This document shows, piece after piece, positions 7,953-8,000 of a stretch of DNA of 9,689 bases. Every line of letters starts with the position of its first letter. The first letter of the stretch is position 1. Below the pieces are notes generated by a model. It was not told the DNA's origin and searched no databases. It saw nothing but the letters and a program-made list of their open reading frames with translations. The translations under genes were made by a program, and so were the position numbers. This DNA is from Enterobacteria phage P-EibC: the sequence record AF151674.1, one strand, 5' to 3'.

Positions 7953-7972
7953 AACTGTGGTTATGTACAGTA
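7953..7972. promoter_or_regulatory. LexA (SOS) box 1 in the DinI-like promoter region
   Basis: aaCTGTggttatgtACAGta fits the CTGT-N8-ACAG consensus (TACTGT(AT)4ACAGTA). It lies 14-33 bp upstream of the dinI-like start codon. Confidence 0.6.
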
Positions 7973-7980
7973 TTATTTTT

Positions 7981-8000
7981 AACTGTATGTATAAACAGTG
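7981..8000. promoter_or_regulatory. LexA (SOS) box 2, tandem to box 1
   Basis: aaCTGTatgtataaACAGtg, a second CTGT-N8-ACAG match with an AT-rich spacer, 28 bp from box 1 (centre to centre). Confidence 0.6.

Follow-up and report, generated by a model that had tools for sequence, protein, structure and literature searches.

The last gene of the lambdoid prophage that occupies yecE in the sequence record of Enterobacteria phage P-EibC (AF151674.1) encodes a DinI-like protein, and it is very probably a monocistronic moron driven by a LexA-repressed sigma-70 promoter with two operators. We analysed a window of 9,689 nucleotides, that is the whole stretch of DNA under study, in which two predicted LexA operators precede this gene on the minus strand. 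We are confident that at least one of these boxes would confer LexA-dependent SOS control, and their joint conservation suggests that both probably contribute. SOS control had been proposed earlier from the presence of two operators on the dinI-like promoter; the quality of the sites, their overlap with the predicted promoter, the position of the gene at the prophage end and the conserved layout all agree with this proposal. That the control is 'tight', as was also suggested, is plausible but not established.

Two predicted LexA boxes precede the dinI-like gene

The original prediction placed two 20-mers fitting CTGT-N8-ACAG upstream of the gene, and both are found in the sequence exactly at the positions given. 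On the plus strand, the proximal 20-mer reads AACTGTGGTTATGTACAGTA (7953-7972) and the distal 20-mer reads AACTGTATGTATAAACAGTG (7981-8000). On the gene strand, which is the minus strand, the distal box is CACTGTTTATACATACAGTT, with its CTGT-N8-ACAG core at 7983-7998 and its first base 61 nt 5' of the A of the ATG. The proximal box is TACTGTACATAACCACAGTT, with its core at 7955-7970 and its first base 33 nt 5' of the same A. The starts of the two boxes are 28 bp apart and so are their centres, which corresponds to about 2.7 helical turns. The two boxes match the consensus TACTG(TA)5CAGTA at 15/20 and 16/20 positions. The motif CTGT-N8-ACAG occurs three times in the 9,689 bases of the window, where 0.18 occurrences are expected and none of 200 shuffles reached three, and the LexA boxes account for two of these three matches.

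The boxes were scored by their heterology index (HI), calculated with the Berg-von Hippel formula from a count matrix of 19 E. coli LexA operators. The matrix was symmetrised because the non-symmetrised one depends on orientation, giving the proximal box a value of 5.5 or 13.0. No published HI matrix or operator list was found in open papers; a set of 19 operators was assembled, and each was found letter for letter ahead of its gene in E. coli sequence, K-12 supplying 18 of them and the related locus L001 the ruvAB operator. For 16 classical SOS genes, the rebuilt matrix agrees with published HI values within about 1 unit (rebuilt and published values, respectively: umuD 2.0 and 2.1, recA 4.7 and 5.0, lexA 7.3 and 7.4, dinG 8.7 and 8.6, polB 12.2 and 13). 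The published values are those of Courcelle et al., quoted in PMC11228462, in which classical LexA-regulated genes extend up to about 13.

With the symmetrised matrix, the HI is 4.4 for the distal box, like that of recA or uvrB, and 8.8 for the proximal box, like that of uvrD or dinG. Scoring with a LexA matrix had been proposed as a check, and it places both boxes within the range of classical operators, far from the high values that mark poor sites. The distal box is a predicted high-affinity operator. The next-best 20-mer in the window has an HI of 12.4, and all remaining ones score at least 16. Against a composition-matched background, the chance per position is about 4e-7 for an HI of 8.8 or less and about 2e-9 for an HI of 4.4 or less, so that 0.004 sites per window are expected by chance.

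The boxes overlap a predicted sigma-70 promoter

On the gene strand, the order of elements is TTGACA (8004-7999), CTGTTTATACATACAGT, TAAAAAT (7981-7975), AATACTGTACATAACCACAGTTAC, AGGAGG, GTGTT and ATG. TTGACA (7999-8004, minus strand) is the predicted -35 hexamer of the dinI-like gene, supported by a consensus scan and by conservation. The -10 region (7975-7981, minus strand) can be read as TAAAAA with a 17-bp spacer, which is the -10 annotated in the Shiga-toxin phage VT1-Sakai, or as AAAAAT with an 18-bp spacer; the scan retained TTGACA-18-AAAAAT, with 10/12 matches. As the consensus match by itself is not above chance (the region has 2 such matches and 2.1 are expected), we base the promoter call on position and conservation. 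The same -35/-10 element is conserved in the homologues described below, and the records of VT1-Sakai and mEp460 both mark it as a promoter.

The distal box fills the predicted -35/-10 spacer and touches both hexamers. The proximal box starts directly after the predicted -10 and is expected to span the predicted start of transcription together with the first 15-20 bases of the transcript. With the predicted TTGACA/TAAAAAT pair, the boxes overlap the putative promoter of the dinI-like gene, as had been expected. The Shine-Dalgarno sequence AGGAGG that had been pointed out is also present, at 7945-7950 on the minus strand, five bases before the ATG at 7939.

A terminator-like hairpin is found about 100 nt past the dinI stop codon (7574-7593, minus strand). 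It consists of a 7-bp GC-rich stem, GGGGAGU-loop-ACUCCCC, followed by CUUUCU, a weak U-tract. Beyond it lies the 3' end of a convergent gene encoding a serine-protease autotransporter of the SPATE type (3317-7324). The sole open reading frame past the hairpin has no family match, and the next gene is this convergent SPATE gene; in relatives, dinI abuts convergent tail-fibre genes. The gene has its own predicted promoter and is followed by a hairpin, and it therefore shows the promoter-gene-terminator shape of a phage moron. In addition, the cassette is constant while its flanks differ between phages. The original prediction stated that read-through towards the SPATE gene was not expected. This remark was loosely worded, as the dinI transcript does run convergently toward the 3' end of the SPATE gene; what holds is that a terminator-like hairpin stands between the two.

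The 3' untranslated region of about 100 nt that ends in the hairpin (7574-7690) belongs to the SPATE-bearing version only, and relatives match from 7696 onward. In Klebsiella, the 3' end of the chromosomal dinI gives rise to an Hfq-dependent small RNA, DinR, which represses ftsZ (PMC10907235). We considered a DinR-like RNA from the dinI-like 3' untranslated region and set it aside, given an unremarkable fold (z = -1.0) and the weak U-tract. An Rfam search of 7300-8400 returned nothing meaningful.

The gene product belongs to the DinI family

The gene (7691-7939, minus strand) encodes a protein of 82 residues, which matches the PF06183 profile over positions 1-63 of 63 with an E-value of 3.6e-17 and 62.9 bits, for a cut-off of 24.2. 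It is 37% identical to K-12 DinI over its full length, and comparison with the solved DinI structure (1GHH/7YWA) gave an E-value of 3.4e-11, with residues 1-81 aligned. In this comparison, the C-terminal stretch of 14 residues aligns with EILQETWESADDWF, and the acidic WE-ADDWF helix is kept. The assignment of the minus-strand gene as DinI-like is thus upheld by the profile, by the identity to K-12 DinI and by the match to 1GHH. The score for the NCBIfam DinI equivalog NF007893 is 63.3 bits, below the cut-off of 111, which makes the protein a DinI-like paralogue whose biochemistry is not assured to be identical to that of chromosomal DinI. The PGAP name for the same open reading frame is 'DinI-like family protein'.

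The two-box layout is conserved

Homologues were gathered from a scan of viral contigs, a scan of species-representative genomes, and collections of phage and E. coli genomes. The species scan gave 3 loci only, and the comparative set was provided by the viral contigs and the phage collection; many viral contigs stop at the dinI start codon and gave no upstream DNA. Both boxes, with HI below 13, are found at about -61 and -33 and with a spacing of 26-29 bp in 18 of 19 distinct homologous promoters. The distal box lies at -60 to -62 in all 19, with HI values of 4.4-12.0, and the proximal box lies at -33 to -35, with an HI below 13 in 18 of them. Alignment of 16 distinct upstream regions showed that TTGA-A, the A-rich -10 (AAAA-ATAA) and, in each of the two boxes, CTG and CAG are invariant or nearly so, while the inner bases of the boxes are variable and the DNA upstream of the -35 is unrelated. 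Three more E. coli genomes, sampled at regular intervals along the identity ranking and including O104:H4 C227-11 and a cdt phage, keep the two-box layout, as do mEp460 (HI 6.6 for the distal box and 4.4 for the proximal box) and Stx2a and Stx2c phages. In the related locus L006, the promoter region and both boxes are identical to those of the window.

Sites with an HI of 9 or less are largely confined to this position: among the 30 found in 257 kb of related loci, 26 precede dinI-like genes and another 2 correspond to the ruvAB operator. The remaining two are TACTGGACAAGTATACAGTT (L003, 1298-1317; HI 7.0), 1.7 kb upstream of dinI, and AGCTGTAAATCCACACAGTA (L030, 457-476; HI 8.9), just downstream of dinI. 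These two may be further prophage SOS boxes.

We considered whether a single operator would suffice. The distal box could repress on its own, the weaker proximal box being redundant or decaying, and control would then resemble that of a single-box dinI and would not be especially tight. The gap between HI 4.4 and HI 8.8 fits such a scheme. It is also consistent with the single box found at -39 in K-12 dinI, in Gifsy-1 dinI and in the dinI of a Klebsiella phage, with Klebsiella phage P18-100, which keeps the proximal box only, and with degraded boxes in some relatives (HI 14.6 for the proximal box of L016, 11.0 for the distal box of L018 and 11.4 for the proximal box of L004). Moreover, a spacing of 28 bp, about 2.7 helical turns, gives no reason to expect cooperative LexA binding. 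However, both boxes have an HI below 13 in all but one of the 19 distinct sequences, and the accepted operators of uvrD and dinG have the same HI as the proximal box, 8.8. In addition, the stronger box swaps by lineage, the proximal box having an HI of 4.4 in mEp460, L018 and L019. That the stronger box changes between lineages and that both are nevertheless kept is the pattern expected from selection on both sites. A promoter governed by the distal box only thus appears unlikely, and we retain the reading in which both boxes contribute.

The cassette lies at the att end of the prophage

K-12 DNA is 100% identical to the window over 8202-9689, so that host DNA extends from there to the end of the window. 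The yecE att core, which reads ATGCCCGCCACTTTAACTGCGTG on the minus strand, has a 23-bp copy at 8202-8224, and this core is also present at the other prophage junction. From the start of K-12 identity at 8202 and the junction core in yecE, we place the end of the prophage at about 8201. The distance from the boxes to the att core is 202-248 bp. The gene had been predicted to sit at the prophage end, and it is indeed the last one of the prophage, with the core about 200 bp away. Matching E. coli chromosomes have the DinI-like gene flanked by prophage tail-fibre or cargo genes on one side and by yecD on the other. In strain S1-CAM-02-A, a lambdoid prophage of about 51 kb that appears complete occupies yecE; it has genes for an integrase, an excisionase, a LexA-family (CI-type) repressor and Q, and for lysis, head and tail functions.

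Between the tail-fibre genes and dinI, the window carries a cargo region in three parts (970-7324): a gene for a YadA-like trimeric autotransporter, possibly Eib-like (970-2484), an open reading frame of 166 residues with no family match (2543-3043), and the SPATE gene (3317-7324), whose product of 1,335 residues has a Peptidase_S6 domain and an autotransporter barrel. The 3' end of the SPATE gene is joined to dinI in 9 of 5,426 complete E. coli genomes. A P-EibA phage fragment likewise carries this dinI-like gene.

Two copies of a 21-nt direct repeat, TTTTGGGGCATG(C/G)(A/T)TGGGACA, lie at 8023-8043 and 8064-8084, and a third GGGGCAT stands between them (8057-8063). This repeat block sits between the dinI promoter and the att core, and the repeats are probably integrase arm-type, recombinase or excisionase sites of the att arm. 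Motifs TGTCCCAT and ATGCCCCA also precede dinI in VT1-Sakai, which is integrated at yehV, in L071 (1830-1860) and in many other prophages and IMG/VR loci. The GGGGCAT block is missing in L003, L004, L018 and L032.

This neighbourhood raises the question of whether the palindromes could bind a phage protein such as a repressor, an integrase or an excisionase, or belong to the architecture of the att arm, and not be LexA sites. Their location 200-250 bp from the att core, beside the repeated GGGGCAT/TGGGACA block, would be compatible with such a role. In contrast, the match to the LexA consensus is specific, and scores of this kind are practically absent elsewhere. The cassette is also associated with different integration modules (yehV for VT1-Sakai, yecE here, an Rci-type integrase in mEp460), and it is kept in the four loci where the GGGGCAT block is missing. 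We therefore regard binding of a phage protein in place of LexA as extremely improbable, and continue to treat the palindromes as predicted LexA operators.

The genes for the excisionase and the integrase, the att core, the att arm, the dinI promoter and dinI are all on one strand (window 7940-8224 together with L073 39644-41256). Since int, att and dinI share this strand, int, attP, the att arm, the dinI promoter and dinI would be collinear after excision. In mEp460, the Rci-type integrase gene directly abuts the dinI promoter. The position just downstream of int across attP corresponds to that of the sib/b-region in lambda. Given this position, expression of dinI by read-through during lytic growth is possible.

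The cassette is widespread and sometimes decayed

Homologues of the gene and promoter (7691-8010) are present in 2,002 of 5,426 complete E. coli genomes (37%), at 3,947 places and with up to 8 per genome; the boxes were checked in the sample of homologues described above. The related locus L003 (CACSKA010000001.1) is titled Chryseobacterium sp. and carries a dinI-like cassette of enterobacterial type, with both boxes and 73% protein identity. To our knowledge, LexA boxes of the E. coli type are not expected in Bacteroidota, and this contig may therefore be mislabelled or contaminated.

Some copies have decayed. One group has lost the first ten codons, the promoter and both boxes, and one copy, in strain NC22, is frameshifted. 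In the truncated group, which comprises L035-L053 (e.g. L035 2840-3216) and the Stx2a phages H93-H100, the dinI-like gene starts at residue 11 and is fused straight to the ATGCCCCA block, the Shine-Dalgarno sequence and the start codon being deleted together with the promoter and the boxes. Such copies give some ground for asking whether the locus of the window could be a silent relic, in which the boxes are real and the promoter or the gene is no longer expressed. Yet the open reading frame, the Shine-Dalgarno sequence, the -35, the -10 and both boxes are intact in the window, the identical promoter region of L006 has both boxes, and the prophage looks complete from integrase to tail fibres. 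A relic is very unlikely on these grounds, and a functional promoter remains the preferred reading.

Comparison with related dinI genes and multi-operator promoters

The closest described counterpart is the dinI homologue H0001 of VT1-Sakai (AP000400.1), which is likewise the last prophage gene beside att, in the same orientation and with a TTGACA promoter. Its protein is 66% identical to that of the window, its proximal box is at -33 as here, and a distal CTG-N10-CAG is found at -62. The record labels the gene 'similar to E. coli K12 DinI' and annotates a 'putative SOS box' and a 'putative promoter'. The feature 'LexA protein / putative SOS box' corresponds to the homologue of the proximal box only, whereas the homologue of the distal box lies, unlabelled, within the annotated promoter. 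The VT1-Sakai boxes are weaker, with HI values of 10.5 and 9.9 as compared with 4.4 and 8.8 in the window. The two prophages also differ in their integration sites, yehV for VT1-Sakai and yecE here, and in what follows dinI, a small YkgJ-like gene in VT1-Sakai and the convergent SPATE gene in the window.

In Salmonella, a LexA box precedes the dinI genes of Gifsy-1, -2 and -3, and both mitomycin C and nalidixic acid induce them (PMC3121763; PMC8072944). Gifsy dinI heads a dinI-antirepressor-irsA operon whose control by LexA was established by experiment (Lemire et al. 2011, PMC3121763), and non-polar dinI deletions had no significant effect on prophage induction (PMC3121763). As in the window, a prophage dinI homologue stands directly behind a LexA box and a sigma-70 promoter. 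In contrast, Gifsy dinI belongs to the early region and is 1.3 kb away from the genes for replication, whereas the gene of the window is at the att end, beyond the tail fibres. Gifsy dinI has as its partner the antirepressor that sets off prophage induction, whereas the window gene is monocistronic and its prophage has a LexA-family (CI-type) repressor. Gifsy-1 has one box at -39 instead of two at -61 and -33, and the Gifsy protein is 40% identical and of a different subfamily. We rejected an operon of the Gifsy type for the window, given the lack of a downstream partner, the other position in the prophage and the presence of a LexA-family repressor. Tum of coliphage 186 and its split relatives in Fels-2 and PSP3 are further LexA-controlled phage genes with a DinI-like module (PMC3121763). 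In these phages, an antirepressor is either fused to the DinI module or located next to it, whereas the gene of the window has no such partner.

The chromosomal dinI of K-12 encodes a protein of the same family (37% identical, with the WE-ADDWF helix conserved at the C-terminus), and is LexA-repressed and strongly damage-inducible. It differs from the gene of the window in being a core gene and not phage cargo, and in having a single box, ACCTGTATAAATAACCAGTA (HI 5.4), at -39. Several LexA operators on one promoter are also found for lexA, with two boxes, and recN, with three. The boxes are closer to each other in these promoters (21 bp in lexA, 22 and 18 bp in recN) than in the window (28 bp) and its homologues (26-29 bp).

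Discussion

The layout described here would correspond to simple repression. In the undamaged cell, one LexA dimer would occupy the distal box between the -35 and the -10, and a second dimer the proximal box over the start site, and together they would exclude or block RNA polymerase and keep the promoter shut. [quoted passage not shown] The DinI-like protein would then build up and, like chromosomal DinI, bind RecA filaments through its acidic C-terminal helix. From this arrangement of sites and gene we infer that LexA occupies the boxes, that DNA damage induces the gene and that the protein binds RecA, and any effect on the prophage is likewise an inference. The original prediction also proposed a coupling to the dynamics of prophage induction. 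This is speculation, although conceivable because the prophage has a RecA-dependent CI-type repressor; against it, induction of the Gifsy prophages did not change significantly when dinI was deleted.

Earlier literature lists prophage DinI as cargo and discusses a possible damping of Stx-phage induction, without experiments, and in the literature searched we found no data on damage induction or LexA control of E. coli prophage dinI copies. The finding is real but ordinary, because the cassette is present in about one third of E. coli genomes and an SOS box was already annotated in AP000400.1. The locus is predicted to be a genuine LexA-repressed moron of an already known kind. The addition is a modest one: the att-adjacent subfamily of prophage dinI genes normally has two operators at conserved positions, where the VT1-Sakai record annotates one. 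The gene is one more predicted member of the accessory SOS regulon of E. coli, and the carriers of a homologous gene and promoter include EHEC and O104:H4 strains.

If DinI paralogues damp the co-protease activity of RecA, their copy number could influence the induction of prophages and of Shiga toxin, and SOS mutagenesis under antibiotics. A bolder reading, which we hold to be quite doubtful, is that the LexA-gated DinI-like genes beside att, of which a single E. coli genome may have up to 8, serve the phage as a brake or timer for RecA in its activated state and that the two-operator layout is tuned for this function. As dinI is collinear with int across attP after excision, transcription reading through from the early leftward operon could also express it. 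If such a brake exists, it would fix the threshold for induction that applies to the resident LexA-family (CI-type) repressor as well as to co-resident prophages, for example Stx phages.
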